A DNA stretch of 64,000 nt from positions 56 to 64,055 of the forward strand of contig CAYWTL010000001.1 of the NCBI GenBank assembly GCA_964460245.1. Reading direction: 5' to 3'. The translations under genes were made by a program, and so were the position numbers. Source of the DNA: an uncultured Syntrophaceae bacterium (GTDB lineage: Bacteria > Desulfobacterota > Syntrophia > Syntrophales > Fen-1087). The notes under the pieces were generated by a model that saw only the letters and a list, made by a program, of their open reading frames with translations, made no database searches and was not told the DNA's origin. The first letter of the stretch is position 1. Each line of letters begins with the position of its first letter. Below are positions 673 through 26,223 of this stretch, piece after piece.

Positions 673-1011
673 ATGAAACTGAAACTCTTCCTGGACGAGG
701 ATATTCACACCGGCCTGTCCCATGCCTTACGGCAGAGGGGATATGATGTCGTCCACGCCCAGGATCTGAAGCGAAAAGGAAAATCAGACAGCGAGCAACT
801 CGCCTTTGCCGTTCAGGAAGAACGCTGCCTCGTCACCTTCAACGTCCGGGACTTTGTCCATCTCCACAATGAGTATGCGGCACAGAACCGGGAACACTGG
901 GGGATCATCGTTTCCCGACAGATGCCCATCGGCGAGACGCTCAGGCGACTGCTGAAGAAGGTCGGTCTGGCAACCCGGGAGGATTTAAGGAACCGGGTCG
1001 AGTTTTTGTGA
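673..1011 (+). CDS. DUF5615-family PIN-like protein (putative toxin)
   Basis: 112-aa ORF. The N-terminal KLFLDEDI and the acidic residues typical of Mut7-C/PIN-like DUF5615 are present. DUF5615 is classically paired with DUF433. Confidence 0.7.
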   Translation: MKLKLFLDEDIHTGLSHALRQRGYDVVHAQDLKRKGKSDSEQLAFAVQEERCLVTFNVRDFVHLHNEYAAQNREHWGIIVSRQMPIGETLRRLLKKVGLATREDLRNRVEFL

Positions 1012-3419: not shown

Positions 3420-3449
3420 CCCCCTCTGGGAAATTCCCTCCTTTTCGAT

Positions 3450-6235: not shown

Positions 6236-6264
6236 TTGACAACCGATATAACAGATGCTATATA
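6236..6264 (+). promoter_or_regulatory. Sigma70-like promoter of the large defence operon (TTGACA-17-TATATA)
   Basis: TTGACA at 6236-6241, an exact 17-nt spacer, then TATATA at 6259-6264. It sits about 40 nt upstream of the helicase ATG in an AT-rich 540-bp intergenic region. The direct repeat ATCTATCG occurs at 6204-6211 and 6219-6226, just upstream. Confidence 0.5.
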
Positions 6265-6305
6265 GTTCTTGACATTTTGATGGACGGGAGAGACAAAATA
6301 CTTTG

Positions 6306-9300
6306 ATGGCCGACCAGAAATCCATAGGAATCAAACTTCAAGACGATTATCCCGAGCGGATCAAAAGGCTCCGTGCCGGTCTCGGTCTTACTCAGCAATC
6401 GTTGGCTAATGCACTTGGAGTCTCCTTTGCCACCGTCAATCGATGGGAGAACGGCCAAACCAAGCCCTCGCAACTCTCCTGGAATCAGCTTCGTCAATTG
6501 GAGATGAGTCTCAAGGAAGAAGCGGCTCCCGATCGATCAAATAACGAGAAACCCCCACCGCCCATTCTCGATTTCACGGCCTCACCGGAGATCGTGAAAA
6601 TGCTTGCCGAAGGCGAGAGACTCTCCTTCGGCCATCTGATGAACCCTACCTTCGCCACGGAAATCTCAAGCATCGATCCTCTGCCCCACCAGCGCATCGC
6701 CGTCTATGATCACATGATGAAGCAGGCAAGGCTTCGATTTCTATTGGCCGACGATGCGGGCGCGGGGAAAACCATCATGGCCGGCCTTTACATCCGCGAG
6801 ATGCTTTCCCGTCGCCTGCTGAAGCGCATCTTGATCGTGCCACCTGCCGGTTTGGTGGGAAACTGGCGACGCGAGCTTTTGAAGCTTTTCAGCCTCTCTT
6901 TCCACATCGTCAGCGGCAACGATACCCGTCACGGGAACCCCTTCGCCGGTGAAAACGGTGATCAGGTCATCGTCAGTATCGATACCCTATCCAGCTCACG
7001 CGTTTTTTTCTGTCTGAAGGATCCCCGCGTTGCCCCTTACGACCTCGTCATTTTTGACGAGGCGCACAAGTTGGCGGCAAACCGTGGTCCGGATCTCCGC
7101 ATTCGGAAGACAGAACGTTACTGTCTGGCCGAGGCCTTAGCCGGCGTGAAAAGCAATGATCGACGCTGGCAATTGGACTGGAGCGCCTACCATCTCTTGC
7201 TGCTCACAGCCACGCCTCATATGGGCAAGGATTATCCTTACTACGCCCTCTGGCGGCTCTTGGAGCCCGAGGTTTTGTCCACGCCAGATGCCTTCGGCGA
7301 ATATCCGGCGGATCAGCGGCAAGCCCATTTCATCCGTCGGACGAAAGAGGAAATGGTGTACCCCGATGGCCGCCCCCTCTACCCCAGGCGTATCTCCGAT
7401 ACCCTGGGCTACCTTTTGACTCAAGGTGACGTCAGCGAACAACGGCTTTATGACGAAACAACGGACTACCTGCGCTACGTATACAACAAGGCCAAGCTCC
7501 TGAACCGGGAGGCGGCAAGACTGGCCATGAGCGTATTTCAGCGACGCATGGCCAGTTCGACATATGCACTCCTGCGCTCCTTTGAACGGCGCGTCGAAAA
7601 ACTGAGTATCCTTATCGACGAGATCCAGGACGGAAAACTTAGTCCCGAAGCACTTGTTGCCCGCCAGCAACGGTTGCACCTGGAAGACGACGTCTTCGAT
7701 GCGAAAACAGCCGACGACGAGATTTCCGACGAGGAACGCGAGGAAAATGAAGCGGCCGAGGACAGGCTCCTACAAGGCGTTGTCGCCGCCTCATTGTCAG
7801 ACCTGCTGGCGGAAAGGGAACAGGTTCGGCAACTTCTCGACCTGGCGAAGCAGGTTTATGAATCAGGTCAGGAATCAAAATTCGAAAAGCTTCGGGAAGC
7901 ATTGACCGATCCCCGTTACAGCGACGAGAAATTCATCATCTTTACCGAGCATCGCGACACCCTCCTTTTCCTCGTGAGACGCTTGAGTGGGATGGGATAC
8001 ACCGACCAGATCGCCCAGATCCATGGTGGTATGCACTATAGCCAGAGGGAAGAAGAGGTCGAACGATTCCGAAAACCGGTCACCGAGGGAGGTACGCGTT
8101 TTCTGATCTGCACGGATGCAGCGGGCGAAGGCATCAATCTCCAGTTCTGTTGGATCATGATCAACTACGACGTTCCCTGGAATCCGGCCCGGCTGGAACA
8201 GCGGATGGGGCGCATCCATCGTTACCTCCAAAAGCACGATCCCGTGATCATTCTGAACCTGGTTGCCCCATCCACCCGTGAAGGAAAGGTTATCAAAACA
8301 CTCCTCGACAAGCTGGAAAAAATCCGCAAGGAACTTCAGTCCGACAAGGTTTTTGACTGTATCGGCCGCTTCTTTGAAGGGGTATCCATCAAGCAATACA
8401 TGGAGCTGGCCGTGACCGAAGACGCTGAAACGGTCGCCCGTGAACTGGATGGACGGCTGACAAAGGAACAGATTGAAGCCTTGGCAGAACGGGAGAGATC
8501 TCTCTATGGCGGTGGCGGCGACGTGGCCGGCGAGCTTCCGCGCCTTCGCGCCGACCTGGAGCGGGAAGTGCACTTCCATTTGCTCCCCGGCTATGTGCGG
8601 CAGTATATCGAACAGGCCGCCCCGCTCGTGAATATTGAGATCGCGGGCGATCCAGGCGGCATCTTCTCCTTGCATCCGAAACGATTGGGCGCCATGGATG
8701 CGCTATTACCGGATCTGGAGTTATACCCCGAAAAGACGCGGGAACGGTTTTCCGTTTCCCGGACCACGGATCTGCTGGCACCTGATGTAAAAACGGGGAA
8801 GGACGATTTCATTTGGCTCCATCCCGGTGATCCGGTTTTTGAACGATTCCGATCTCTGGTAGCCGAGTACCTGGGCAATCAAGGTAAGCGCGGCGCCGTC
8901 TTTATCGACCCCAATACCGAAAAGCCCTATCTCTTTCACATGGCCCTCATCCATATCGTTCGCAAGGCCGATCCGGAAATCCCAAGACTGGCCAAGGACG
9001 AGTTGCTGGATTGTCGCCTGGTCGGTGTGAAACAATATGAAGGCGCGGAAATTTCACTCTGCCCCGTCGAACATCTTCTCCTTTTGCGGGGTGGAAGTGG
9101 CCTGCCTGCATCAGCTCAGCGACTGGCCGTGCGGGCCAACGAGGAAAAGGGTCATGTCCTGGCCTACCTTTCTGAACGAGTGGCCCGGGAATTGGCGCTT
9201 GATCGACGGCAGAGCTTACTGGATAGCCTCCCCGAACGAGAGAATTTTCTGCAAAGAGGCTTTGATTGCCAGGAAGCAGAGTTGGCGCTGTCTCGCGCCC

Positions 9301-9902
9301 GGCATGCTGAAAAGGCGCGGTCGGGCAACCGGAAAGCTATCGAAGCCTTGGAAGAGATAAAGCGCCAGCAGCGGCAACTGGTAAGCCTCCGGGAAGGCGC
9401 CATGGCCCTACTGCAGCGAGAACCGGAACTCATCGCTCCAGGTTCGATCGCTTTCGTAGCCCATGCCTTGGTCGTTCCGTCTTCCGATCCGGCGGATCAG
9501 GAACAGTATGACGTCAATGTTGAGCAAGTGGCGATGAAGGTTGCCCAAGCCTTCGAGGAGGCGGCCGGCGCCAAGGTGCTCGATGTCCATACGCCAGAAC
9601 GAGCCCGCGCAGCAGGCCTTCCGGAGAATCCTGGATTCGATCTCTTCTCACTGCGGTCGGAAAATGAAAAACTGGGCATCGAGGTCAAAGGGCGAGCGGG
9701 AACAGGCAACATCGAGGTATTAGCCAATGAATGGGCCAAGGCCTGCAACATGCGGCAGGATTACTGGTTCTACGTAGTATATGACTGTGCCACACCAAAC
9801 CCCAGGCTAGTGCGGGTTCAAGATCCCTTCGGAAGCTTGCTCGCCAAGAGCAAGGGCAGCGTTTTGATCAGCGCCAAGGAAATCGGACAGGCAGCAATTT
9901 AG
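6306..9902 (+). CDS. XRE-HTH / SNF2-family helicase / C-terminal DUF3883 (PD-ExK-like) fusion protein
   Basis: N-terminal HTH: LGLTQQSLANALGVSFATVNRWENGQ. Helicase motifs: DDAGAGKT (I), FDEAHKL (II), LTATPH (III), GEGINLQ...QRMGRIHRY (V/VI). C-terminus: GFDLF...IEVKG...YWFYVVY. The ATG at 6306 follows the TTG at 6303. Confidence 0.9.
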   Translation: MADQKSIGIKLQDDYPERIKRLRAGLGLTQQSLANALGVSFATVNRWENGQTKPSQLSWNQLRQLEMSLKEEAAPDRSNNEKPPPPILDFTASPEIVKMLAEGERLSFGHLMNPTFATEISSIDPLPHQRIAVYDHMMKQARLRFLLADDAGAGKTIMAGLYIREMLSRRLLKRILIVPPAGLVGNWRRELLKLFSLSFHIVSGNDTRHGNPFAGENGDQVIVSIDTLSSSRVFFCLKDPRVAPYDLVIFDEAHKLAANRGPDLRIRKTERYCLAEALAGVKSNDRRWQLDWSAYHLLLLTATPHMGKDYPYYALWRLLEPEVLSTPDAFGEYPADQRQAHFIRRTKEEMVYPDGRPLYPRRISDTLGYLLTQGDVSEQRLYDETTDYLRYVYNKAKLLNREAARLAMSVFQRRMASSTYALLRSFERRVEKLSILIDEIQDGKLSPEALVARQQRLHLEDDVFDAKTADDEISDEEREENEAAEDRLLQGVVAASLSDLLAEREQVRQLLDLAKQVYESGQESKFEKLREALTDPRYSDEKFIIFTEHRDTLLFLVRRLSGMGYTDQIAQIHGGMHYSQREEEVERFRKPVTEGGTRFLICTDAAGEGINLQFCWIMINYDVPWNPARLEQRMGRIHRYLQKHDPVIILNLVAPSTREGKVIKTLLDKLEKIRKELQSDKVFDCIGRFFEGVSIKQYMELAVTEDAETVARELDGRLTKEQIEALAERERSLYGGGGDVAGELPRLRADLEREVHFHLLPGYVRQYIEQAAPLVNIEIAGDPGGIFSLHPKRLGAMDALLPDLELYPEKTRERFSVSRTTDLLAPDVKTGKDDFIWLHPGDPVFERFRSLVAEYLGNQGKRGAVFIDPNTEKPYLFHMALIHIVRKADPEIPRLAKDELLDCRLVGVKQYEGAEISLCPVEHLLLLRGGSGLPASAQRLAVRANEEKGHVLAYLSERVARELALDRRQSLLDSLPERENFLQRGFDCQEAELALSRARHAEKARSGNRKAIEALEEIKRQQRQLVSLREGAMALLQREPELIAPGSIAFVAHALVVPSSDPADQEQYDVNVEQVAMKVAQAFEEAAGAKVLDVHTPERARAAGLPENPGFDLFSLRSENEKLGIEVKGRAGTGNIEVLANEWAKACNMRQDYWFYVVYDCATPNPRLVRVQDPFGSLLAKSKGSVLISAKEIGQAAI

Positions 9903-9915
9903 GACAGGTAATTCC

Positions 9916-10248
9916 ATGAACCCTCTTCTGTCCGCAGCAACCATTATGGCTCTCAGTTATCGGGCGCTTCAGCTTAAGGAGCAATTCAGGGATGATAACC
10001 TGTTTTCATTTTCGATTGAACTCTTGACAGATTGCCGTCATAGCACGTATGAACTATTCATTACCCCCCTCGGTAGCTTCGGCGAAAAGGCGCAGAGTAG
10101 CCCCGCAATGGGCGGCTCTTGCTTTATCCATACAACCCATTCGGATTCCGACCAACATATAAGACAATCAGCCGATTTGTATGTATTGTTTAGGGTCTAT
10201 GCTCACAAGAAGGGTCATTGTGTTTCTATGCCAAGGAGGACTGACTGA
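9916..10248 (+). CDS. Small hypothetical protein (110 aa)
   Basis: The ORF starts 14 nt after the helicase stop and ends in TGATG, overlapping the next start. It has no recognisable motif, and whether it is coding is uncertain. Confidence 0.3.
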   Translation: MNPLLSAATIMALSYRALQLKEQFRDDNLFSFSIELLTDCRHSTYELFITPLGSFGEKAQSSPAMGGSCFIHTTHSDSDQHIRQSADLYVLFRVYAHKKGHCVSMPRRTD

Positions 10249-11441
10249 TGAATAATCAAGAATTGGAAGAACTTCTCTTCGATTTGGAATCGGATCGGAT
10301 AGAGCGAAAAGAATCTATCGCCGATATGAAAAAGATCCGTCAGGCCGTCTGCGCCTTTGCGAATGATTTGCCCAATCATCGGCAGCCTGGCGTAATCTTC
10401 ATCGGGGCTCGAGATGACGGTAGTTGTGCAGGTCTACAGATTACAGATCAATTGCTACTCACGCTTTCTGATATGCGATCGGATGGCAATATACTGCCGC
10501 TTCCCATGATAACTGTCGAAAAAAGAGTGTTAAGGGGCTGTGAACTGGCGGTCGTCATAACGGAACCTTCGGATCTCACGCCCGTTCGTTTTCAGGGCAG
10601 GGTATGGATTCGTGTGGGACCGAGGCGCGCAATCGCTACGGCAGAGGAAGAGCGACGCTTGAATGAAAAGAGGCGCTCGCGCGATCTTCCTTTTGATCTC
10701 TATCCCCTAAGCTCTGCATCAATCCAGGATTTGGATCTGGATCTTTTCCAAAGAACCTATCTCTCCGCAGCTATTTCACCGGATATTCTTGCAGAGAACC
10801 AACGATCGACGGAACAGCAGTTGGCCTCATTGCGTTTTATAACGCCCGATAGCCCTGCCATACCCACGGTAGCCGGTTTGCTGGCGGTCGGCAAATCCCC
10901 GAACGATTTCATCCCTGGCGCCTATGTGCAGTTCTTGAGATTTGAAGGTGCGGAGCTGACAGATCCCATTGCCGACCAAAAATCCATATCCGGCCCATTA
11001 TCACAGGTGCTCAGGGAACTTGATGAAATTTTCAAGGCAAACATCCGTATTCCAACAGATATTGTTTCAGAAGCCACTGAAGTGAGACGGCATGACTATC
11101 CCATTACCGCAATCCAACAATTCGTGAGAAATGCCGTCATGCATCGCGATTATCAGACATCGAACGCACCGGTCCGCGTGACTTGGTTTGTCGACCGTGT
11201 CGAAATTCAGAATCCCGGCGGCCCGTTCGGACAGGTCACCAGACAGAATTTCGGCCAACCTGGCATCACGGATTATCGCAATCCCAATATTGCTGAAGTA
11301 ATGAAGAATCTCGGTTATGTGCAACGATTTGGCGTCGGAATTCAGATTGCCCGTAAGGCTCTTGCCGACAACGGAAATCCGCCTGCGGATTTTCATATTG
11401 AAGACAACCATGTACTGGTGACGATCCGGAGGAGAACATGA
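10248..11441 (+). CDS. AlbA_2 (Schlafen-like) DNA/RNA-binding domain protein with an HATPase_c_4-like C-terminal domain
   Basis: The N-terminal ELLFDLESDRIERKES...A.AN is typical of the AlbA_2/AAA_4 family. The C-terminal FVRNAVMHRDY...RNP.IAEVM..LGYVQRFGVG is also typical. A strong AAGGAGGA SD precedes the start. The stop overlaps the next ATG (ATGA). Confidence 0.7.
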   Translation: MNNQELEELLFDLESDRIERKESIADMKKIRQAVCAFANDLPNHRQPGVIFIGARDDGSCAGLQITDQLLLTLSDMRSDGNILPLPMITVEKRVLRGCELAVVITEPSDLTPVRFQGRVWIRVGPRRAIATAEEERRLNEKRRSRDLPFDLYPLSSASIQDLDLDLFQRTYLSAAISPDILAENQRSTEQQLASLRFITPDSPAIPTVAGLLAVGKSPNDFIPGAYVQFLRFEGAELTDPIADQKSISGPLSQVLRELDEIFKANIRIPTDIVSEATEVRRHDYPITAIQQFVRNAVMHRDYQTSNAPVRVTWFVDRVEIQNPGGPFGQVTRQNFGQPGITDYRNPNIAEVMKNLGYVQRFGVGIQIARKALADNGNPPADFHIEDNHVLVTIRRRT

Positions 11442-12436
11442 GCATTCCCGTCATTGCCTTTTTCAATAACAAAGGAGGGGTAGGAAAAACATCCCTCGTC
11501 TATCATGTGGCCTGGATGATGAGCGAACTTGGGCTACAGGTCTTAGCAGCAGATCTTGACCCCCAATGCAATCTCACCGCAGCCTTTCTTGACGAGGACC
11601 AACTGGAGTCGTTATGGCCCGACAATGAGCAGCCGCCAAGCACGATTTACGGTGCCATTCGTCCTCTGCAGACGGGCATCGGCGATGTGACTGAACCGAA
11701 ACTTCAGAATCCGGTGGAAAATCTCTCGCTACTTGCCGGCGATATGCTGTTGTCCGGATTTGAAGACGGCCTTTCCGAAGCATGGCCCAAATGCCTCGAT
11801 CGGGATGAACGCTCGTTTCGAGTTATATCATCCTTCTGGCGCATCATCCAAAAAGGAGCTGCACAAAAAGATGCTGAAGTCATCCTAATTGATTTGGGGC
11901 CGAATCTCGGCGCAATCAACCGCGCGGCCTTGATCGCATCGGATTATGTGGTCATCCCTCTGGGACCGGATCTCTTTTCTTTGCAGGGTCTGAAAAACTT
12001 GGGACCGGCTTTGCGGAACTGGCGGGAAGGATGGAAAGAAAGACTGCCGAAGAATCCTTCAAAGAACTTGATTCTTCCGAAAGGGGATATGCAACCGTTA
12101 GGATACATCGTCATGCAGCATTCCGTGCGTCAGGACCGTCCGGTGAAAGCGTATGATAAGTGGGTATCCAGAATTCCTTTCACCTACGAGCGTTTTGTTC
12201 TCGATCGGGATACAAAGCTTCATCGAAGAATAGAAGGTGATCCCAATTGTTTTTCTCTTATCCGCCATTACCGGAGCCTCATGCCCATGGCCCAAGAAGC
12301 AAGAAAACCCATGTTTTTTCTAAAGCCAGCCGATGGCGCAATAGGTGCTCATGCCAGGTCTGTTCAGGATTCCTACAATGATTTCAAAGAGTTAACGAAA
12401 AAAATCCTCTCAAAGGCAGGGATTCTTCAAATATGA
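11438..12436 (+). CDS. ParA/Soj-like AAA ATPase (long form, 332 aa)
   Basis: Deviant Walker A FNNKGGVGKTS, followed by AADLDPQCN. ATGA overlaps occur at both ends. Confidence 0.85.
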   Translation: MSIPVIAFFNNKGGVGKTSLVYHVAWMMSELGLQVLAADLDPQCNLTAAFLDEDQLESLWPDNEQPPSTIYGAIRPLQTGIGDVTEPKLQNPVENLSLLAGDMLLSGFEDGLSEAWPKCLDRDERSFRVISSFWRIIQKGAAQKDAEVILIDLGPNLGAINRAALIASDYVVIPLGPDLFSLQGLKNLGPALRNWREGWKERLPKNPSKNLILPKGDMQPLGYIVMQHSVRQDRPVKAYDKWVSRIPFTYERFVLDRDTKLHRRIEGDPNCFSLIRHYRSLMPMAQEARKPMFFLKPADGAIGAHARSVQDSYNDFKELTKKILSKAGILQI

Positions 12437-15400
12437 CCGATACACCACGTTTGATTGAACACGCCTTTCCCTTGAAGCAGGCGTCCCTGGATTCGGTACA
12501 TGAGAAGAACGTTCGCCATGGTCATATCTCGACCCTCCATATCTGGCCGGCGCGACGGCCACTGGCAGCCTGTCGGGCAGCCCTGATCGCTACGCTGCTG
12601 CCCGACCCAAGCGCCCAGCCAAAGCCCGATGGCATGTCCGATGAAGAGTGGCATCAGGAAATCATCCGTCTGCGTCGGGAACTCTGCGAGAAGATCGGCG
12701 GCAAGACGGTGAAGACCGTCGAAAAGAAGAAGATGCCGAACGGTCAGATCGTCGAACGGGAGAAGGAAGAAACGTCTGGCGGCATCCTCCATTGGGGCTT
12801 GGAGACAAAGAACAAAGAGCTTTTGGATTGGTTCCGTCAGGAGATTCGCAAGGCCCACGGCGGTCGGGCGCCGAAGATCCTCGACCCCTTCGCCGGCGGC
12901 GGGGCGATCCCTCTGGAGGCGATGCGGCTGGGTTGCGCGGCAACCGCCGTGGACATCAATCCCGTGGCCTGGTTCCTTCTGAAATGCACCCTCGAATACC
13001 CCCACCGATTGGCGGGTAAGACCCTTCCACTTCCTGATTTCATCCTCGACGACGAAGCCTTCATGGAGGTCTTTTACAAGGCCCATTCCCATCTGATCGG
13101 CCGCACCAAGAAGACCAAACAGCAAAAGGAAAAAGAGGAAAGGGCGCCAGGCCTTTTCGACAAGCCGGATTCCGGGAGGGCGCCGAAGGCGGATCTCGCC
13201 TGGCATGTTCGGGCCTGGGGCCAGTGGGTGCTGAAAAATGCCCGCCGCGAGCTGGCTGCCTACTATCCGGCCTATGCGGATTTTGAGCCCATCAGCGGCA
13301 CTTTCCCCAAGCCCTATGAAAAACAGCCTTTGCGGCTCGTGCCGCTAAGCAAGGACGGCACGCCGGATATCGAAGCCCTCAACATCGATTTCAGCGAGGA
13401 ATACCTCCGGGACAAGAGCAATCCCCGCTGGGTAGCCAAACCGACGGTAGCCTACCTCTGGGCGCGAACGGTGTCATGCAAGAACTGCCGTGCCGTCATC
13501 CCGCTCCTCAAGACCCGGTGGCTCTGCAAAAAGGATAAGAAACGGGTTCTCCTCACCATGGCGCCGAATGCCGACAGGTCCAGCGTCACCTTCGGCATCG
13601 AGGCAAATGTCCCGGTCAAGGGCGGCAACGCGGCCCAGCGCCGGGAACAGGACAAGCAGCTCGGCAGCGGCACCATGTCCCGCTCCGGGGCCAAGTGCCC
13701 CTGCTGCGGGACGATCATGACCATGGAAGACATCCGTCTGGAGGGGAAGGCCGGCCGCCTGGGATCGGTCAATACAGCCGTGGTCGTGGACGGCCAGAAG
13801 GGCAAGGAGTATCGCCTGTCCATGGATCATGAGATACGGATGGCGGCCGAAGCCGAGAAGGCTGTTGCCGATGTCTTTGCCGAGATCCCCTTCGGGCTGC
13901 CGGAAGAACCAACACCCAAAGGTGGAAGTGGCGCTAGTAGGGCTTTCTCAGTGGACGGCTATGGTTTCAACCAATGGCAAAAGCTCTTCACGCCTCGTCA
14001 GCTCTTGGCTATGGGAACATTCGTGAAATCGACGCGGGCTATTATCAAGAACTCTCAATTAGGAAAAAACAATGAACTTGTGCCTATCTTAGCCTACCTA
14101 GCGGCAGCAGTAGACAGGTTGTCCGACAGATGTGCCACACTCTGCACGTGGGATCAAGGATACACCAAGGTTAACCATGTGTTCAATAGGTATGCACTAC
14201 CAATTACATGGGACTTCTGTGAAGGAAATCCGCTGTCTGAAACAACGGGGAATTACGGAGATGCTGTAACGTGGATATGCAAATATATTGACCACGCAAT
14301 TGATGCCTGTCCTAACGCAACGGCCCCAATTGTTCGTCAAGAATCAGCCATTTCCACCAATATCAATGAGATTTTCGATATCATTGTTACCGATCCTCCA
14401 TACTATGACGCCATTCCTTATTCGGATCTCATGGACTTCTTCTATGTTTGGCTCCGCAGGGTCCTCTTCGGAATCACTGAAGACTTTGATACTGCCTTTC
14501 AGGAGACGCTATCTCCAAAGTGGAATCACAGTACAAGTGATGGTGAATTGATTGACGACGCCAGTCGTCATGGAGGGGATAAAAATAAATCCAAAACAGT
14601 CTATGAAGAGGGTATGTTTCATGCTTTTCAGAAATGTTCCGAAGCATTAAATGATGAAGGAAGATTAGTGATCGTCTTTGCACATAAACAACCAGATGCG
14701 TGGGAAACTTTAGTATCAGCTATTATACGTGCCGGATTCACTGTTGACGGTAGTTGGCCCATTCAGACTGAAATGAGTACCGGCCTTCGCAATTATGGAC
14801 GGGCATCACTTGCATCCTCAGTTTGGCTTGTCTGTAAAAAACGGTCTGCAACGGCTAAACCCGGATGGGACAATCAGGTCCTGGAAGAGATGCGGAAAAA
14901 GATCCGGGAGCAGCTCCGCGAGTTTTGGGACGCAGGGATCCGCGGTCCCGACTTCGTCTGGGCGGCGACGGGCCCGGCATTAGAGGCTTATAGCAGGCAT
15001 CCAGTCGTCCGCAAAGCCACCGAACCGGGTCCGATGACGGTCAGCCAGTTTCTCACCCACGTCCGAAGAATGGTTGTGGATTTCGTAGTTGGCCGAGTAC
15101 TTTCTGGAGACGGAACCGCTTCTCTGGCACCGGAGGAGATAGACGCGATGGGCCGGGATCGTCTGGATGAGCCAACAGCTTACTACCTGCTTCATCGTCA
15201 CGACTTTGGTATGGAGGAGGCTCCGGCTGGGGCGTGCATCCTCTACGCGGTCTCTTGTGGTATCTCGGACAAGGAACTAGCCGACACCTGGGACCTCATC
15301 AGTTCTGCAAAAGGGAAGTCGTCAGAGGAAGCGGAAGAAAAGGCCGACGCCGATGCGGAGGCGGACCCGGAAGCCTCGGAGGAATCGGGAAACAAGGTGA

Positions 15401-15723: not shown

Positions 15724-15804
15724 GAACGGAATTATTTCTTGGATGGGAAATTCGGCAGACTGCGTCTGCTGAATTGGTGCGATAACATGAGGAGGGAAAA
15801 ACCG

Positions 15805-18800: not shown

Positions 18801-19101
18801 ATGGCCCTGTGACTTCCCGTCGGCGCAATCGGTCATCCTGAAACCGCCAGCCACGCCGCCCCCCCCGCCTCCGCCCCCGCCGGGACTGACGCTCGGTGCA
18901 GAAGCCGATCTCGAACCATCACAGATTCAAGACCTGGGGGACATCGTTCCCAAGCTTTTGGAAATCAAGAAAACGGGCTTGCCGATGCGGTTTCGTCTGC
19001 GAATCGAGATCGGCGACGGCAAGACCGCGCCTCCTGAAAATGTGGTCAAGGAAGTGAATACCTTGCTTAAGGATGTGAAGGAGGATTTGCAGCTGAAGTA
19101 G
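15805..19101 (+). CDS. DUF499-type (COG1483-like) P-loop ATPase
   Basis: The N-terminal WHEVVKLRDDLRSGDL..FAADL is DUF499-like. Walker A is TYGGGKTHT and Walker B-like is LLLIDEV. I moved the start to the ATG at 15805 (GAGGAGGG SD 8 nt upstream); the longest ORF starts at 15739. A poly-Pro linker (P9) precedes a ~70-aa C-terminal domain. Confidence 0.8.
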   Translation: MTKLPWKPWHEVVKLRDDLRSGDLPLHLFAADLYDVMMQRGKRKVYEDPEQFFALTFPTFNLRRLVRDVMLRLAGKNDKAVRQLELTYGGGKTHTLITLRHLVHDPEKLPKLPAVEEFIQEIGQKPPRCRVAALCFDKLDVEKGMEVVSPSGKTRMLKQPWSVLAWQLAGEEGLKILHADGLPEERETAPAENLLTELLEIPGKEGLGSLLLIDEVLLYARERVGKDVVRLQSLVNFFQYLTQAATKADRCCIVASLLASEPTSEDELGRRIKAQIYDIFQRQREEAVEPVVKEDVAEVLRRRFFKPESLKDREVFRQHVVAALKGITAVDEQTAKQGANAEQRFLDSYPFHPDLTEVLYSKWTQLARFQRTRGVLRIFALALREAEKWDKSPLIGPAVFLNAPKSEGLSEALREMVTVADTEETEGKKQAWTGILDNEFEQAKRIQQESVGLKFREVEQAVVATFLHSQPISQSAKTRELVVLMGSTRPDKIELEKGLYRWSQTSYWLDDLNTSTPEGQLPGTWRLGNRPNLNQMHAVAAKNIPDDTVRARLLDDIGKLKSLTANASAAGVHPHTLPIRPKDIEDDGAFHYAVLGPGAASESGKPSIEAKRFLDETTGSDKPRVYRNAVVLVTPSKDGLELASARVRDYLGWEGVREEIKQQQKDGNVDPARAQTLSINIDKAKGRIPDAIRQAWCIVVTVSEKDEAQSFKITVTDDPHFNIIKSDKRSRMQDTPVTAEALLPDGPYNLWRPGETARRVKDLSGAFAQLPHLPKMIKASAILSTLAEGCGKGIFVLRLVRPDGTSRTWWMTKPDDIALSDPALELVLPASAELGEIPPALLSPNVLPGLWTADEITFQAVTDYFNGKNVVQVEREGYRESLPIPKAAEGVVEKAVASAVESGLLWLLCGPASILGEPIPPGVLNESAKLSAPPAVIAAAEILPENLPGAWKGGYASGLSVSTALSIREKKTLPWKTIKDVIGGALQARFLALSEKSAAWPCDFPSAQSVILKPPATPPPPPPPPPGLTLGAEADLEPSQIQDLGDIVPKLLEIKKTGLPMRFRLRIEIGDGKTAPPENVVKEVNTLLKDVKEDLQLK

Positions 19102-19213
19102 GCGACTCATGATGACGCGACACCCCGATTGGCATGGGGTCAGAAAGTGGGATGTTGACGCCTGAAATGACTAATAGTGACTTTTCGCTGATCTATGTTC
19201 GCGAGTATCTATT

Positions 19214-20545
19214 ATGGACCTTTTTTTAACGGCATATGATCCTTCCGATCTGCCAGGGGGCAGTATTGACCCGTTGGGTTTTGAACGTGGCTATCTCTTC
19301 TTGGCAGATAAGATTCTTCCTGGCATGACGAACGTCGCCTCGTGTCCAAGATATTTTGGGATGCTTTGTGCCGCGTCGCTCCTATCAGGCGTTGGAGGGG
19401 AAGAAGCATCTCGGAATCAAAGAACAAAGAGGGTCGAAAGCATTTTGAGGTTGGAGCGTCTGTGGGCATTGGCAAATGTTCTCGCCAAAACCAAAGACGG
19501 CAATCTGTCCGGATTGAGGGGCGTGACCTATGCACAGAGACAAGCGGAGCGCCTAAATGAAAACGGGCATACCAAAACAAGTTGCGATTACAAGCTCCTT
19601 GTCCGTCAGGCACCGTATGGCGCCGTGGGCATTTATGGTGCCGTATCGGAATACTGTAAACTTCTTTACCGGAAGACCTATGAATTGACCCCAGGGCTAG
19701 GCGCAGTTTTAGCGGAATGTTTCATTGAAGAAACAGGTATGCCCAAACAAGTAAAGAAAGCTGTTGTTGAGGCTGCTGAAGTATCTATCAGTGTCTTGGC
19801 CGAGTGGGGAGAGAGGGCCTACCTCTGGGGAAAATCCGGTACCGGAGAAAGTGCGTGCATAGCTGATATGATCGACGGCGTCGATATCAGATCACGCTTT
19901 GCTCTTCTTGCAACGAAAAACCAACCATTAGAAAATGAAACGGAAATCCAGCGGCTCGGGCGGATGACAGTCGCCATAAAGGGGAGTGATGATAACCATG
20001 ACATCTGGGAATCCCTTCAGGCAATCATGGGTTACGAATCCTGCTACAGATTGGCCCAACTCGCTTTCGAGAGACTCCTTTTTCTTTGTCGAAAAAGGAG
20101 CGGTCCTGGTGGAAGTTTCAAAATTTCTGATCTTACAGAAGATAAAGTGTTTCTCAATATTCTTGCACAGCTCCCCGTCGCCGTCGGATCTTTTTGTCAG
20201 ACCCTGGACAAGGCTGAAACTGCACACTTCAGAAAGGAAACCGAAGAGCGACTGGCCGACGTCCGTCAGTTTCTCGTTGATGCGGCAACAGCAGGCACCA
20301 GTTCCAGCAACCTCTGTGAGATCATTTTGAATCGTCACAGAGACGTCCAGCACGGAAAATTTGATCATGGAAGGAGAAAAATGCCATGGATTCAGATGAA
20401 TGACGGGAAACTATCCCTAACGATGACGCGGGTCGGCGGATTGGACCGGGAGGCAACAGAGCCGGAAGACATTACGCCTCACTTTTATCGATTGGAAGCT
20501 GCCGATAACTGGATGAGGGCCGCGGGTCGTTATGAAGACAGGTGA
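19214..20545 (+). CDS. Hypothetical protein (443 aa), no motif recognised
   Basis: A long ORF on the operon strand with protein-like composition. The N-terminal GGSIDPLGFERGY..LAD..LPG.T is reminiscent of DUF4007-like proteins, but only vaguely. The SD is poor. The 3' end overlaps the PLD start by 14 nt. Confidence 0.6.
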   Translation: MDLFLTAYDPSDLPGGSIDPLGFERGYLFLADKILPGMTNVASCPRYFGMLCAASLLSGVGGEEASRNQRTKRVESILRLERLWALANVLAKTKDGNLSGLRGVTYAQRQAERLNENGHTKTSCDYKLLVRQAPYGAVGIYGAVSEYCKLLYRKTYELTPGLGAVLAECFIEETGMPKQVKKAVVEAAEVSISVLAEWGERAYLWGKSGTGESACIADMIDGVDIRSRFALLATKNQPLENETEIQRLGRMTVAIKGSDDNHDIWESLQAIMGYESCYRLAQLAFERLLFLCRKRSGPGGSFKISDLTEDKVFLNILAQLPVAVGSFCQTLDKAETAHFRKETEERLADVRQFLVDAATAGTSSSNLCEIILNRHRDVQHGKFDHGRRKMPWIQMNDGKLSLTMTRVGGLDREATEPEDITPHFYRLEAADNWMRAAGRYEDR

Positions 20546-22625
20546 CAGCAAGATAGATGAACGCAAACTGATAGGCAACATCGCTCGACGCGAAGATTGG
20601 GGAAACTGTCACGGTTTCTGGGCAACGACCTACGAGTTTCAGCCTGTTTTTTTTGAAATGGACTTTCTTCCCAATCTTCTAAACCTCGGATCTTGGGACG
20701 ACCACCATTGGACGACTCGCATCACGCTGGAAAGGGAACTGGCACTGATGGACACTGCGTCCATTATGTTAGATGCCGGTTGCTACAATGAACGACCGCA
20801 ATCTCTCCGGGTCGAAATCTTACCGACGAAGGGTCGCAACGGTAATAAGCTGCACGCCAAGGTGCTCCTTTGTCTCTACGAGAAAGCACTTCATTTAATT
20901 GTTGGAAGCGCGAATCTCACCGACCCGGGATACCGGAAAAACATTGAAGTAGCTGCTGTTCTTACCGTCACACCGAAAAATGTTGGGCATGCGGGTTTAA
21001 TCAGTGAAGCCCTGACCAATGCCGGGGACATCCTCGGACCATGGTGGTCAGAAGCGGCCAATGGGTTGAATCAAAAAGCCATCGAATGGTTAAAGAAAGT
21101 CAGTACCACCAATTCCTCGACACGAGATTGGTTTGCCTGGGGCGGGGGCAAAACCCCCTTATGGCAACAATTCTTGAGCCGGTGGCCCCAAGATGAACAA
21201 ATTAGAAAAATCACCATAGTCTCTCCCTTCTGGTCCGATGAGGATGGCAAGGGGCCGGTGGCGCGATTTGTCAAAGAACTTCAAAGGCGAAAAGCATTAG
21301 TGAAGGATGCAGAAGTTCTTCTGGTCACCGAAGCAACACCGGAAGGGCAGAACTCATATCTGCCCAGTTTACCTTCGACTTACGGAATATTCGATTTCTC
21401 TGGCCTTAGTATCCAATGCTATGCACAGCCAGTGGATCCCACAGTCGCTAAGGAAGAGGTTCTGCGGGACGATCTACTCGTCACACGACGCCTTCATGCA
21501 AAAGTTGTCCTCCTTGAAGGCCAACGATCAAGCCTGGCATATGTCGGATCAGCGAATTTTACCCATAAAGGATGGGGTTTCCTGACTACACCGCTTACAT
21601 CAAATATCGAGGCAGGAATCATCGCCTTGAAGCGTGGCGACGGAAATAACGGCGTTGAGCAGTTGATCCCTAAACTTACCGGAACTCGCATTCGTTTGAA
21701 CGGTGAGAACGAGGCCCCATTAGGAACTTATCCAAATTACCAGAAAGGCATTCCCTGGCCTGCCTTCATCAAAGATATTCGTTTGGTTCCTGAAAACAAA
21801 ACCTCTCACATTCTCCAATTCCAAATCACCACCCGCCCTGTCGATAAAAGTGGACCTTGGAAAATCGCGTTTGTTGACGAAGAGGAAGAACCCAAGAAGC
21901 TTTTGGATGAAACCGAAGTTCCATTCACAGAACATGAATTCAACCGGCCCCTCGATAAAAATCAATTGGAACGCCTCCTGCGTGAGCGAGAGGTCTTAAT
22001 TTCTTGGTGGGAATGTCCGACTGGAAGGAGATGTCCGATCAATGTCGACGCGGCAGCCAGAGATAATCTTCCTATCAGTCCAGAATCACGAGATCCCAAT
22101 GAACGGATGCTCTTGGCCTATTATCAAGGGCGAATACTCTATGAGGATCTTTTCCCTCCCCCTGACGGAACGGGAGAAGAACTGCCAGAGCCAATTGATA
22201 GAAATCTCTCGGGGGTTGACACATCCAAGATTCAGTCATACCAGATCAGAGAATTTGTCGAGTCGATCGAAGGTATTCGTCAAGATCTGCAAGAAGCAGC
22301 AGACCATTCCGAAAAGGCCATGCGGTTGGCCCTTCTGGGTCCGGTAAGCCCCGTAGCCTTGTCCCGTATCATAGTCGATAGTGTTACCGACAAGACTGTA
22401 GGACGAACGCCTCTTGCTGCTGGATTCCAACTGACTGAGATTTTGTGCCTCCTGAAGGACGCTTCATATCTCCCTGGGAATGATTCCTGGGATGAGCATT
22501 TGCAGAAAGCAATCGGAGAGATTCAAACGCTGATCAATCAAATGGTGACCGACTACCCGGATATCTTGGGCAAGCAGACGCGTTTTGAAAAATACTTTAA
22601 CGCCCTGCTGTCTCATTTTTCTTGA
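20532..22625 (+). CDS. PLD-superfamily nuclease-like protein with two HKD motifs
   Basis: The two motifs are KLHAKVLL...VGSANLT and RLHAKVVLL...VGSANFT. Confidence 0.8.
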   Translation: MKTGDSKIDERKLIGNIARREDWGNCHGFWATTYEFQPVFFEMDFLPNLLNLGSWDDHHWTTRITLERELALMDTASIMLDAGCYNERPQSLRVEILPTKGRNGNKLHAKVLLCLYEKALHLIVGSANLTDPGYRKNIEVAAVLTVTPKNVGHAGLISEALTNAGDILGPWWSEAANGLNQKAIEWLKKVSTTNSSTRDWFAWGGGKTPLWQQFLSRWPQDEQIRKITIVSPFWSDEDGKGPVARFVKELQRRKALVKDAEVLLVTEATPEGQNSYLPSLPSTYGIFDFSGLSIQCYAQPVDPTVAKEEVLRDDLLVTRRLHAKVVLLEGQRSSLAYVGSANFTHKGWGFLTTPLTSNIEAGIIALKRGDGNNGVEQLIPKLTGTRIRLNGENEAPLGTYPNYQKGIPWPAFIKDIRLVPENKTSHILQFQITTRPVDKSGPWKIAFVDEEEEPKKLLDETEVPFTEHEFNRPLDKNQLERLLREREVLISWWECPTGRRCPINVDAAARDNLPISPESRDPNERMLLAYYQGRILYEDLFPPPDGTGEELPEPIDRNLSGVDTSKIQSYQIREFVESIEGIRQDLQEAADHSEKAMRLALLGPVSPVALSRIIVDSVTDKTVGRTPLAAGFQLTEILCLLKDASYLPGNDSWDEHLQKAIGEIQTLINQMVTDYPDILGKQTRFEKYFNALLSHFS

Positions 22626-22634
22626 GGGAGACCA

Positions 22635-25600
22635 TTGATCAATCTTTCGCACGATTTCGATCTGGGCCAAGACAAGACACGAATGAAAGATCCGCGGGAT
22701 GCAGCGCGGCAAACCGCTACGGTTGAAGCCCTCCTTGATCGCTTTTTCAACGACGATCCTGACAGAAGATACGAGATTCAGATTCTGGCCGATGAGGTCG
22801 GCATGGGAAAGACGTTTGTAGCCCTTGCCGTGGCATATTCCATCCTGAGCGCCATGCGAGATAACCACAGTGATGGCGACCTTGATGGTTGCTATCAAAG
22901 AGTCCTCATTATCACCCCCAGCAACCAAGCGCTCTTCGACAAATGGCAGAGAGAGGTTGGTGAGTTCGTCAAGCGCTGCGGGGCTGAAAAAAATGATGAG
23001 ACGCGGCACTGGTTTGCTCCATTGGCAGTTAATCGAATTGATGATTTGTCGGCCGAATTGCGAACGCCCGGCCAGCGACCCAGAGTGCTTATAGCGACGA
23101 TGAGCCTTTTTGCCGGCACAAGGCTAAAACATTATGACCTGAAACGTAGGTTCTTGCTTGCTGCCCTTTTCCGTTACTGGGGGAATCGGTTTCAATATGA
23201 CTTGAGGCATAATCTTCTCAAAGGCACCCCTGCGGACTGGCCTCGAAAACATGATGAGTTATCCTTGTTGAGTGAGAGCGAAAAAGAAGTCCTCCCGTTC
23301 ACTGCAGACGAAATCTGTGATGCGCTGAGGAGATTGGATGAGCATGACACTGCAATATCTGGGGGATTGGAAAGCATTGAACAGCTCCGTTATATCTGCA
23401 GGCAGATCGCTGAGCCATACCAGCGCAACCGTAATGACTTGTTCAAGGAAGTAGAAAAGAGACTCACCGCAATCTACAAAGCCGTCACAGGCCTCCTGAT
23501 TCTCAAGTCCTTTCCGCTTGTCATTGTGGACGAGGCACACAACTGGAAAAATGGCCCGTCCAAGGGAGCCAATGGATATAAAGAATTTGTCCGTTATATC
23601 GCTTCCAGGGCACGGCGCGCCCTCTTACTCACCGCAACACCCTTTCAGCTTCGGCCTGAAGAGATGATGGAAATTCTAAAGGTGTCCGATGAGCTCGTGC
23701 CGTCATCAAAAATGGCCGACACCGTGCTGCGCCGCACCAGGCTGGAAAGGTTTCGGGAAAATTTCATCAGACCCACCCTCAAAAAATCCGAGAGCGCAAG
23801 CAGAAAATTTGCCAAGGAATGGGCCAGGCTCCCGTCCAGCGTTTCCATGCACACCATACAGGAAACGTGGTTAATACCTCGGGTGGATGAGATAAGACGA
23901 AAAATCGCAAAAAAGGCCAATGGAGAAAGCACAATCCCAGATACCTGGCTTCAGGAAACACTGCAAGACGCCTGTAGTTGGATGGAACCCGATCTCCGTC
24001 CTTTCTTACGCGAGGCGATGAAGCTCTACGCGCACAATTTGGAACTTTCACTGAAACTTGGCGCCCTGGTCATACGTCACCGTCGCGGGACTGAGCACAG
24101 ATTCTTTAAGATAGGCGGTGAGTACGGGAAAAATTCAATTGACGTGCTGATGCGCCCGGATAGGCATCTTCTACATGCAGCTCCAGGGCTCGACGTTCGT
24201 GGTGATGGTGAACTCCCCCACTACACCCTCATGAGATGCGTAACCGAGGCAAAAAAAGCGAAAGGACGGAAGGGACGCTCCTCTCTCGGGGCTGCCCTAA
24301 CCGGCTGCTATTCGACGCTTCTTTATAGCGCAGAGGGGAAAGACGTTCAGAATTGGCTTGAATCTTCAAAGGTCGGAAAAGTTTATCTGGCGCTGCTTAT
24401 GGACATGGTTTCGGAAAATGAGGATGAAAACCATCCCAAAATGAAAAGGGTTGTTGAAGAGGTGGTCTCGTCATGGCGCCGCGGGGAAAAGAGTCTCATC
24501 TTTTGTTTCCGTGTCAATACGGCAAAAAGGCTTCAAGAAATTATCGACCAGAACATCCGGAAGGAAATAGAGGATCAGGCAGGCCGCTGCCTGGGCGGGC
24601 GTACAAAGTTGGAGACCCTTCGTGGCCGCCTGACGAGACGAGATCAGGATCTTGTTACCATTGGGTTGGATCGAGTCCTTTGGTCATTGCTGTGGGCTGA
24701 AGGGGGAAATAAGAAAAGAAATGGCATAATCAAACCATCGTACCTTGAGGTGAAACAGCAGGACATTGAAGATTTGGCCAAGCTGTCCCTGCAATACGGG
24801 GTTCCAGTGACAGGGGAACGTGTTGACAGGGTTTTTATCAACAGGGCCGTGGAGCATATCATCGCCAAACGGCTGCTCAGGATCAAGGGATTGACGGAGA
24901 ATTGGAAGACGCTTCTCAATGCGGTATCAAAGTCGGAGTGGGTGGCACGCCCCTATGGCTTAAATCCAGATGTAGAAGAAGACGCCGGTGGCGATGAAAC
25001 ACCGTCTTTTGATGAGCGCGGTGTACATACAGCTTACAACCCGATCCCGTCTCCTTCTGAAGAACAGATACGCGCTCTCGCAAAGCAGATTCGAGAGACA
25101 CGCAGGAGGGCTGAAAAAACGGCACAAGTCCCTATAATCAACAACTACGCACAGGGGGCAAGTCTGTGGTTCGGCGAAGCACCATCTAAAACCTATACGA
25201 AAACGACTAAGGCCAACCATCTCGCTCTGATGCTATCTCGCATCCATAGGCATCTATGGTCACTTTCTCATGGCTCTGACAAGAACTTTGACTGGGAGTC
25301 CCGTCGAAAGGTTCTGCATGCCTTGCGTAAGGCCGTATTTAGAAATTCAGTCCTCCTGAGAATACTGCCAACACAGGCCGATCGTGAAGAAAGTTCGTGG
25401 GGACAGATGCTTGTCCAGTCTTTCTTCCGTCCAATGCCGGATCAAAAGGAATCCGTGGCGGACAGAATAACTGTTTTTTTGGAGGATCTCGATGCCGCGA
25501 GCGGAAGCCTCTCCTCAAAACGACCGGAAGAACAGGGTATGCGTCATGCTATCTATAGCGCGACCAGGCTCTCAGATCAGCGTTTTGTCGCTCTTGTGAC

Positions 25601-26120
25601 CGGCGCAAGCGGTGGTAATGACATAGATGCAAGGACAAGAGTCTTCAATGGATTCAATACGCCACTGCTTCCGGAAGTCCTTGTCTGTACACAGGTAGGG
25701 CAGGAAGGTATCGATTTGCATCGTCATTGCAGGCATGTGATCCACTATGACCTTGATTGGAATCCGGCGAAAATCGAGCAGCGAACTGGACGCGTTGATA
25801 GAATCGGAAGCAAGACGTTTAGAGAGAGGGAAACGTTTCACGGCAACCATGGAGTTTTTCTTGAAATCGGTGTTCCTTTTCTCGCCGGCACATACGATGA
25901 ACGCATGTATGAGGAGTTACGCCTTAGGGCGCAAATATTTGAAGTTCTAACGGGCGGGGACTTTGTTTCGGAAAATGTGGAAGGCCATGATCAGCCTGAA
26001 AGAATACAAAATGATGAGAGAGATCCTGACTCTCTTGACCGATTTCTGCCACTTCCCACAGAAATGGTGGATCAACTCCGAGTAAAGCTCCATGTTTGGA
26101 CGGAAGGACCACCGAAATGA
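22635..26120 (+). CDS. SNF2/DEAH-like SF2 helicase (1161 aa)
   Basis: Motifs: ADEVGMGKT (I), VDEAHNWKN (II), LTATPFQL (III), GQEGIDLH...EQRTGRVDRIGS (V/VI). The TTG start at 22635 has GAGGGAG upstream. An alternative ATG lies at 22683. Confidence 0.85.
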   Translation: MINLSHDFDLGQDKTRMKDPRDAARQTATVEALLDRFFNDDPDRRYEIQILADEVGMGKTFVALAVAYSILSAMRDNHSDGDLDGCYQRVLIITPSNQALFDKWQREVGEFVKRCGAEKNDETRHWFAPLAVNRIDDLSAELRTPGQRPRVLIATMSLFAGTRLKHYDLKRRFLLAALFRYWGNRFQYDLRHNLLKGTPADWPRKHDELSLLSESEKEVLPFTADEICDALRRLDEHDTAISGGLESIEQLRYICRQIAEPYQRNRNDLFKEVEKRLTAIYKAVTGLLILKSFPLVIVDEAHNWKNGPSKGANGYKEFVRYIASRARRALLLTATPFQLRPEEMMEILKVSDELVPSSKMADTVLRRTRLERFRENFIRPTLKKSESASRKFAKEWARLPSSVSMHTIQETWLIPRVDEIRRKIAKKANGESTIPDTWLQETLQDACSWMEPDLRPFLREAMKLYAHNLELSLKLGALVIRHRRGTEHRFFKIGGEYGKNSIDVLMRPDRHLLHAAPGLDVRGDGELPHYTLMRCVTEAKKAKGRKGRSSLGAALTGCYSTLLYSAEGKDVQNWLESSKVGKVYLALLMDMVSENEDENHPKMKRVVEEVVSSWRRGEKSLIFCFRVNTAKRLQEIIDQNIRKEIEDQAGRCLGGRTKLETLRGRLTRRDQDLVTIGLDRVLWSLLWAEGGNKKRNGIIKPSYLEVKQQDIEDLAKLSLQYGVPVTGERVDRVFINRAVEHIIAKRLLRIKGLTENWKTLLNAVSKSEWVARPYGLNPDVEEDAGGDETPSFDERGVHTAYNPIPSPSEEQIRALAKQIRETRRRAEKTAQVPIINNYAQGASLWFGEAPSKTYTKTTKANHLALMLSRIHRHLWSLSHGSDKNFDWESRRKVLHALRKAVFRNSVLLRILPTQADREESSWGQMLVQSFFRPMPDQKESVADRITVFLEDLDAASGSLSSKRPEEQGMRHAIYSATRLSDQRFVALVTGASGGNDIDARTRVFNGFNTPLLPEVLVCTQVGQEGIDLHRHCRHVIHYDLDWNPAKIEQRTGRVDRIGSKTFRERETFHGNHGVFLEIGVPFLAGTYDERMYEELRLRAQIFEVLTGGDFVSENVEGHDQPERIQNDERDPDSLDRFLPLPTEMVDQLRVKLHVWTEGPPK

Positions 26121-26223
26121 TTCCTAATTTGGATGTCGATTTATCTGTTCGCCAAGGACATGATTTTAATCCGGGTTTGATTGGCTGGCGCTGTTTGTAA
26201 TGACACCGCGTCTCCAATAAAGC

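Follow-up and report, generated by a model that had tools for sequence, protein, structure and literature searches.

We report that a 20-kb stretch of DNA (positions 6236-26120) from an uncultured Syntrophaceae bacterium is very probably a segment of a low-GC defense island in which three separately mobile modules lie on one strand: a Hma system, a Schlafen-GHKL/ParA-like gene pair embedded in it, and a trio of genes resembling Azaca. Positions are those of the window, the whole stretch of 64,000 nucleotides (nt) that was analyzed. A preliminary description had presented this region as ten tightly coupled genes, forming either a new multi-component variant covered by no named system or two or three systems fused under one promoter. 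Of these options, two or three systems side by side, whether or not under one promoter, are supported and the new variant is not, since the modules occur independently elsewhere and homology breaks at their borders. The supposed lack of a named counterpart does not hold either: HmaA, HmaB and HmaC are all present with strong scores, the nesting of genes in Hma has been published, and the last three genes are assigned below to the Azaca/PDC-M27 superfamily. The domains and motifs first noticed were all borne out by the translations, Pfam and PADLOC; what had been missed is the kinship of these last three genes.

The plus strand of the stretch holds nine open reading frames (ORFs) of at least 80 amino acids (aa), not ten, and the one at 9916-10248 probably does not represent a gene. 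The features are as follows.

6236..6264, plus strand: promoter-like site of the Hma module, TTGACA (6236-6241), 17 nt, TATATA (direct reading)
6306..9902, plus strand: hmaA (ORF 6303/6306-9902, 1199 aa; PADLOC, Pfam)
9916..10248, plus strand: 110-aa ORF, probably not a gene, in the spacer between hmaA and ORF3 (no family match)
10024..10127, plus strand: conserved non-coding element (comparison with contig L055)
10248..11441, plus strand: embedded gene 1, Schlafen-GHKL, 397 aa (Pfam)
11438..12436, plus strand: embedded gene 2, ParA/MinD-type ATPase, 332 aa (Pfam)
12433..15723, plus strand: hmaB, DUF1156 N6-adenine DNA methyltransferase, 1096 aa (PADLOC, Pfam)
15805..19101, plus strand: hmaC, DUF499 AAA+ ATPase, 1098-1120 aa (ORF opens at TTG 15739; PADLOC, Pfam)
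19214..20545, plus strand: zacA-like gene, 443 aa (family comparison)
20532..22625, plus strand: zacB-like PLD/HKD nuclease, 697 aa (PADLOC, Pfam)
22635..26120, plus strand: zacC-like SF2/SNF2-type helicase, 1161 aa (start TTG 22635 or ATG 22683; PADLOC, Pfam)

The TTGACA-17-TATATA promoter can be read directly in the sequence, and the junctions quoted at the outset are all correct: TGATG at 10246, ATGA at 11438 and 12433, a 14-nt overlap at 20532 and a 9-nt gap before the TTG start at 22635. Tight coupling holds at these points and fails elsewhere, with gaps of 13 nt between ORF1 and ORF2, 81 nt between hmaB and the hmaC ATG at 15805, and 112 nt between hmaC and the gene for the 443-aa protein.

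Module borders

Comparison with related contigs places the breaks in homology at the module borders 12433, 19103 and 26132. One pair of contigs (L054/L055) carries HmaA, the embedded pair (80% and 85% aa identity), HmaB and HmaC (89%), but lacks the trio; at the nucleotide level, these contigs are homologous to the window from 6223 as far as 19103, which is two bases beyond the hmaC stop. A second group (L050-53) has hmaB, hmaC (98.5% aa identity) and the trio (97%-98% aa identity) in common with the window, at 90%-95% nucleotide identity, and there homology begins at 12434, where the second base of the hmaB start codon lies, and ends at 26132. Downstream of the trio, the contigs of this group encode HU, DinB and a tRNA-editing protein where the window has RecQ. 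Base composition differs along the stretch as well: GC content at third codon positions (GC3) is 0.63-0.69 in the hma genes versus 0.49-0.53 in the pair and the trio. What this analysis demonstrates is how the genes are assigned by homology, where the breakpoints lie and that the modules are independent, and the mechanisms discussed for each module below would be those of its characterized relatives.

Two observations weigh against this partition. The Hma-plus-trio adjacency recurs with the same 112-nt spacer in L050-53 and has therefore persisted at least within one lineage, and scans of that spacer found neither terminator nor promoter, so that read-through from the Hma promoter is possible. 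The extreme form of the argument would make all eight or nine genes one integrated, co-transcribed system, with the pair and the trio as obligate subunits of an enlarged Hma. It can draw on the placement of every gene on the same strand, on the overlaps or gaps of at most 13 nt at five of the eight junctions, on the single strong conserved promoter at the 5′ end, on the lack of terminator-like sites at the module junctions in our scan, and on the renewed occurrence of the hmaBC-plus-trio block in L050-53. In the consensus scan, promoter-like or terminator-like sites were no more frequent than in shuffled sequence, and none fell at a module junction. We regard an integrated system as highly improbable. 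Each module is found alone many times; L054 combines Hma and the pair without the trio, while L050 combines Hma and the trio with a different cassette; homology breaks exactly at gene borders; and GC3 is unequal between modules. The block itself recurs at ~95% nucleotide identity in a single lineage: Hma-plus-trio adjacency is confined to one closely related lineage (1 in ~40 seen).

Under the reading as three separately mobile modules, the locus is of little import as a composite system, being one more case of Hma/BREX-like loci that serve as landing pads for defense genes. It does provide a clean natural illustration of the process: a 95%-identical backbone carries a different cassette, with the swap exactly at the hmaB start codon. 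What novelty remains is modest, and we consider it mildly new: the operon of the Schlafen-GHKL and ParA-like genes is a candidate for a system in its own right, and the Azaca-like genes represent a branch that has no name.

The Hma module and its leader sequences

From their profile matches, ORF1, ORF5 and ORF6 are identified as a complete Hma system, alias a Type-1 DUF499-centered BREX-related system. PADLOC recovers HmaA (E = 1.8e-146), HmaB (1.8e-122) and HmaC (1.2e-72) in canonical order; the A-B-C series runs on one strand, with hmaA separated from hmaB by two genes (three ORFs) and hmaB followed by hmaC with no gene in between. The HmaA match is near full length (protein residues 90-1159 against model positions 69-1130 of 1176), and Pfam finds in it HTH_3, ResIII, SNF2-rel_dom, Helicase_C and, at the C terminus, NOV_C (formerly DUF3883; 5.6e-13), a PD-(D/E)xK nuclease domain whose D...EVK is visible in the sequence. 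HmaB has a DUF1156 domain (Pfam, 6.7e-19), FAGGG and DPPY motifs and two Cys pairs, and HmaC a DUF499 domain (Pfam, 4.3e-19) with Walker A GGGKT and Walker B IDEV. The start of hmaC is likely ATG 15805 rather than TTG 15739, because the former is preceded by GGAGG.

Hma was defined by the authors of PADLOC (Payne et al. 2021). In Halomonas meridiana, HmaA was validated as a SNF2 helicase with a NOV_C nickase that protects against T4, and a role for HmaB was not demonstrated for that system; insertions in 66.5% of loci make up an "insertion hotspot" (PMC11232893). A survey that permitted as many as three embedded genes in the gaps separating hma genes found nested extra genes in 62.7% of 1,485 Hma systems and used "guilt by embedding" to find new defenses (10.1101/2024.01.29.577857). 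More recently, a 2026 comparative study renamed Hma loci Type-1 DUF499-centered BREX-related systems and proposed a methylate-scan-restrict mechanism (PMC12839542). By analogy with published work on the family, host DNA would be methylated by HmaB, assembly and scanning would fall to the DUF499 ATPase HmaC, and HmaA, a predicted SNF2 translocase and PD-(D/E)xK nickase, would restrict unmodified invader DNA.

Both boxes of the Hma promoter and most of its spacer are kept in the ~80%-identical L055, and the sequence upstream of them diverges. We also observed that HmaA residues 1-89 (window 6306-6570), outside the region aligned by the PADLOC HmaA model, encode an XRE-type HTH domain (HTH_3, 2e-10). 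It is shared by the HmaA of L055, which is 87.6% identical overall at the amino acid level. Together with the conserved promoter spacer, this HTH may point to autoregulation of the Hma promoter.

A separate observation concerns HmaB, which is a mosaic when compared with L050 over window positions 13870-14830 (aa ~480-800): the N-terminal 480 aa are 80%-100% identical and the adjoining HmaC is 98.5% identical. Identity falls to ~40% in residues 521-560 and 601-640, just before DPPY, and nucleotide homology is lost at 14037-14374. This variable segment looks like a swapped or fast-evolving target-recognition segment.

The spacer between hmaA and the embedded pair contains the 110-aa ORF (9916-10248), which we reject as a real gene on composition and on comparison with L055. 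It lacks a codon-position GC signature, its L055 counterpart is interrupted rather than an intact ORF, and it has zero matches in Pfam (E ≤ 10), PADLOC and NCBIfam. Other Hma-embedded copies of the pair lack both this ORF and the spacer, the Schlafen gene following hmaA after 12-46 nt. The conserved feature of the spacer is instead a non-coding element in which TTGACA-N18-TATGAA (10024-10053) is succeeded by a conserved leader of 30 nt, then a GC-rich hairpin (10092-10122) and finally TTTAT. Its 68-nt core, which lies downstream of TTGACA-N18-TATGAA and holds the leader and the hairpin up to TTTAT, is 90% identical to L055, as against 69%, with many gaps, for the spacer as a whole. Pairing in the hairpin is preserved despite changes on both sides (window versus L055, two independent sequences), and the RNA folds have z-scores of -2.0 and -3.2. 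No Rfam family matched the spacer at E ≤ 10, none reached its gathering score anywhere in the window, and the 68-nt core was found neither in viral contigs nor in any other locus that we fetched. The element at 10024-10127 could be an internal promoter combined with an attenuator-like or small-RNA element ahead of the embedded pair.

The embedded Schlafen-GHKL/ParA pair

Between hmaA and hmaB, the recognized insertion hotspot in Hma loci, lie two coupled genes. The first encodes a prokaryotic Schlafen RNase domain fused to a GHKL domain, an architecture called "Schlatpase" (Pfam SLFN_AlbA_2, 9.2e-13, and HATPase_c_4, 2.9e-18). Its E-x4-E-x-K motif is intact (ESDRIERK, residues 14-21, E14...E19-R-K21); the E-x4-(E/D)-x-K motif was defined in characterized Schlafens, where it is needed for tRNA cleavage (10.1101/2025.07.24.666596). 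PADLOC matches of this protein to pAgo and Aga are restricted to the Schlafen and GHKL domains. The second gene, coupled through ATGA to both the Schlafen-GHKL gene and hmaB, encodes a ParA/MinD-type ATPase (Pfam AAA_31, 2.9e-28, and CbiA) with a deviant Walker A, NNKGGVGKTS, at residues 10-19. The AlphaFold2 (AF2) model of this protein has a predicted local distance difference test (pLDDT) score of 82. Its closest PDB relative, well ahead of Soj/ParA, is 3pg5, an "uncharacterized protein" that aligns over the full length (E = 2.2e-35).

The ParA-like family is 57%-85% identical across phyla, and all 8000 of the 8000 scored candidates reached E ≤ 1e-10. To survey its neighborhoods we used 80 metagenomic loci anchored on the ParA-like gene, of which 75 were testable for the upstream gene and 63 had enough flank to be classified. 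A Schlafen-GHKL gene lies directly upstream in at least 66 of the 75 testable loci, the remainder being mostly artefacts of ORF starts. Among the 63 classifiable loci, 48 carry the pair solo and 15 have HmaA-like and/or HmaB-like neighbors. The coupled pair lies between prfA and era in Gloeobacter morelensis, and in a different set of contigs it is found amid sulfatase genes. In a neighbor-joining tree, the copies embedded in Hma are spread over at least six clades, from which it follows that the pair has repeatedly moved into or out of Hma loci. The papers that could be searched do not mention a ParA-type partner of Schlafen-GHKL, and PADLOC v2 has no model for the pair.

We tentatively propose that the Schlafen-GHKL protein, together with its ParA/MinD-type partner, makes up an autonomous anti-phage system of two genes that is very widespread yet undescribed. 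In it, the ParA-like protein would control a Schlafen tRNase as sensor or gatekeeper, and the system would be flagged by its repeated capture between hmaA and hmaB ("guilt by embedding"). We hold this to be possible, with some reserve. The pair might then act as a backup abortive-infection effector, a tRNA- or rRNA-cleaving Schlafen gated by ATP-driven oligomerization and the ParA-like partner. Two published findings concern relatives: the nuclease of a Schlafen-Argonaute fusion is activated when its GHKL domain drives tetramerization that depends on ATP (10.64898/2026.05.29.728809), and BREX/BR core loci of at least 1017 taxa are associated with Schlafen RNases that have a minimal histidine kinase as fusion partner and are regarded as backup effectors (PMC12839542).

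That last association also fits a different view, in which the pair is an accessory or regulatory module of restriction-modification (RM)-like systems such as Hma, for instance a backup effector or a sensor of host-system failure; Schlafen-kinase proteins are indeed treated as auxiliary or backup effectors of BREX/BR systems. Several observations count against autonomy in the same way. Of the 63 classifiable loci, 15 are Hma-associated, and there the ParA-like gene is ATGA-coupled to hmaB, with such coupling in several diverged loci. In L074 (1-3188) and L076 (1-2125) it directly follows a HmaA-like gene, with no Schlafen gene, and in L074 a hmaB fragment comes next, so the ParA-like ATPase can be embedded alone. 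The coupling and these two loci hint at a tie of the ParA-like gene to Hma that is closer than that of a passenger. In addition, the curation by Payne et al. marked "Reject" a cassette that starts with this Schlafen family (FAM_00002>>FAM_01381) and might be the pair. An accessory role nevertheless seems somewhat unlikely to us: 48 of the 63 loci are solo, some of them inserted between housekeeping genes, the Hma-embedded copies are polyphyletic, and other single-protein prokaryotic Schlafens protect alone (10.1101/2025.07.24.666596). With an operon that is strictly conserved and present in thousands of copies, the candidate autonomous system is a cheap one to take up as an abortive-infection candidate.

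Related cassettes differ in content. Upstream of hmaB, at positions 1-3226 of L050, we noted a Ppl-like ABC ATPase (PADLOC Ppl, 9e-34) and a 408-aa Schlafen-GHKL protein that is 27% identical to that of the window.

The Azaca-like trio

The last three genes of the stretch are assigned, on profile and neighborhood evidence, to a divergent branch of the Azaca/PDC-M27 superfamily. Two of the proteins match it directly. The PLD protein, with two HxK...GSAN motifs and a Pfam PLDc_2 domain, matches ZacB (2.2e-24, 84 bits, partial coverage) and PDC-M27B (1.1e-10); the last helicase, with GMGKT and DEAH motifs and Pfam Helicase_C and SNF2-rel_dom domains, matches PDC-M27C (2.8e-42) and ZacC (2.5e-35). 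Sequence searches with either protein returned no solved Azaca structure, the sole matches being to the helicase motifs of RapA and RAD54.

The arrangement is conserved. We scanned one genome per species and obtained 43 loci with a homologue of the 443-aa protein, in 35 of which this gene is followed by the PLD protein and then the helicase, usually with 4-nt overlaps. These loci span Planctomycetota, Verrucomicrobiota, Acidobacteriota, Myxococcota, Desulfobacterota, Omnitrophota, one spirochaete and others. A HmaB or HmaC homologue lies within 10 kb in none of the 43. This neighborhood test, with the 443-aa protein as the anchor suggested in the preliminary description, thus upholds the trio as a unit that travels apart from Hma.

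The first protein is where the assignment is most exposed. The 443-aa protein itself has zero matches in Pfam (E ≤ 10), PADLOC (E ≤ 1) and NCBIfam, and none to ZacA, PDC-M27A or DUF6361, which speaks against placing it in the superfamily. Its link to ZacA is transitive and runs mainly through one N-terminal motif, a second point on the same side. The steps of that link are as follows. Hundreds of ~440-aa homologues exist at ~50% identity, and Pfam finds no domain in any of them; among 31 family members, 10 have weak PADLOC matches to PDC-M27A (best 1e-4) and 3 match ZacA (best 2e-3), with no match to Pfam DUF6361 among members. A profile search of 1.84 billion representatives brought in 798 relatives. 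Of ten distant full-length relatives, nine match ZacA and no other model (E 2e-8 to 2e-3), mostly over model positions 26-95, which hold the invariant N-terminal motif, and one such ZacA-matching relative (L137) shows this three-gene layout as well. The AF2 model of the 443-aa protein is all-alpha (pLDDT 88.5); a sequence search of the PDB was empty, and a Foldseek search with the model found no PDB match below E 0.96. Taken together, we consider that the trio may be a third branch of the Azaca superfamily, without a name so far and probably missed by the detection models now in use. New hidden Markov models (HMMs) for the Azaca-like first gene would let defense finders annotate several hundred loci.

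In the Bacillus Azaca system, all three proteins are needed for DNA cleavage, the Walker A of ZacC is essential, and T4 DNA is preferred (10.1101/2025.07.10.664194). By extension, the trio proteins may act as one complex that degrades phage DNA. The preference of Bacillus Azaca for glucosyl-hmC T4 DNA in vitro (10.1101/2025.07.10.664194) also allows a link between modules to be imagined: Hma and the trio would be complementary and selected as a unit, Hma acting against unmodified DNA and the trio against hypermodified phage DNA that escapes methylation-based discrimination, as in combinations of Type I and Type IV restriction. Consistent with this, L050-53 keep the adjacency and the spacer despite a different embedded cassette and a different downstream flank. 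We find such a partnership distinctly unlikely, however, for the adjacency is seen in one lineage only, Hma is missing from ~35 trio loci and the trio from the nearest Hma relative, and the substrate preference assumed for this divergent family is that of Bacillus Azaca. Any cooperation between modules is speculative, and we retain the reading as neighboring but separate modules.

Island context and comparison with known systems

GC content is 49%-58% in the left ~29 kb of the window (1-29000) and 60%-69% beyond ~29 kb. No tRNA gene is present anywhere in the window, so the island borders are unmarked by tRNA, and no integrase was noticed in the examined part of the window. At the island edge lies a genuine recQ (26224-28311; TIGR01389, 739 bits), with intermediate GC. 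Directly upstream of the Hma stretch, on the minus strand at 1602-4508, an AEP-TOTE primase-polymerase (352 aa; Pfam AEP-TOTE, 1.5e-100) adjoins a DEAD/ResIII helicase-PLD fusion (605 aa), and from these domains we assign the locus to the TOTE-type conflict modules. A Fic-domain protein (4545-5759, minus strand; PADLOC SoFic, 2.8e-27) and a small DUF5615/PIN-like protein (673-1011, plus strand) are similarly classed as further defense or toxin-like genes of the low-GC island.

With class 1 DISARM and MADS, the stretch shares a general parts list (SNF2 helicase, methylase, PLD and ATPase). Class 1 DISARM is rejected, in agreement with the preliminary description: no ORF has a DUF1998/DrmB match in PADLOC, Pfam or NCBIfam. 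ORF1 scores 488 bits against HmaA versus 322 against DrmD and 214 against DrmA, and DrmC matches are confined to the HKD motif. MADS is likewise rejected, its sole match being a 30-bit local mad2 alignment to 40 residues of the SAM-binding region of HmaB.

The likeness to Hma extends to the same three proteins (a SNF2 plus NOV_C helicase-nuclease, a DUF1156 methyltransferase and a DUF499 ATPase) in the same order, and to the carriage of foreign defense genes between hmaA and hmaB. The system described here differs in the extra N-terminal XRE-type HTH of HmaA, the PADLOC model aligning from residue 90, in a HmaC that has no HEPN fusion, and in its cassette, which is a Schlafen-GHKL/ParA pair rather than a Septu, PARIS, Ppl or HEC system.

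The embedded Schlafen-GHKL protein resembles pSlfn-HisKinase (10.1101/2025.07.24.666596) and "Schlatpase" (10.64898/2026.05.29.728809) in having AlbA_2 with an intact motif followed by GHKL/HATPase_c_4 (PF13749), and in its association with RM-like loci. Unlike these, it has no C-terminal HTH and is coupled to a ParA/MinD-type ATPase partner of ~332 aa.

Compared with Azaca (ZacABC; 10.1101/2025.07.10.664194, PADLOC) and PDC-M27, the trio is set apart by scores that are low for the length of its proteins (84 bits for 697 aa, and 120-143 bits for 1161 aa) and by a first protein without a ZacA, PDC-M27A or DUF6361 match. Its B and C proteins nonetheless match both model sets, and the layout is the same: three coupled genes encoding a small alpha-helical protein, a two-HKD PLD nuclease and a large SF2 helicase with Walker A and DEAH motifs.

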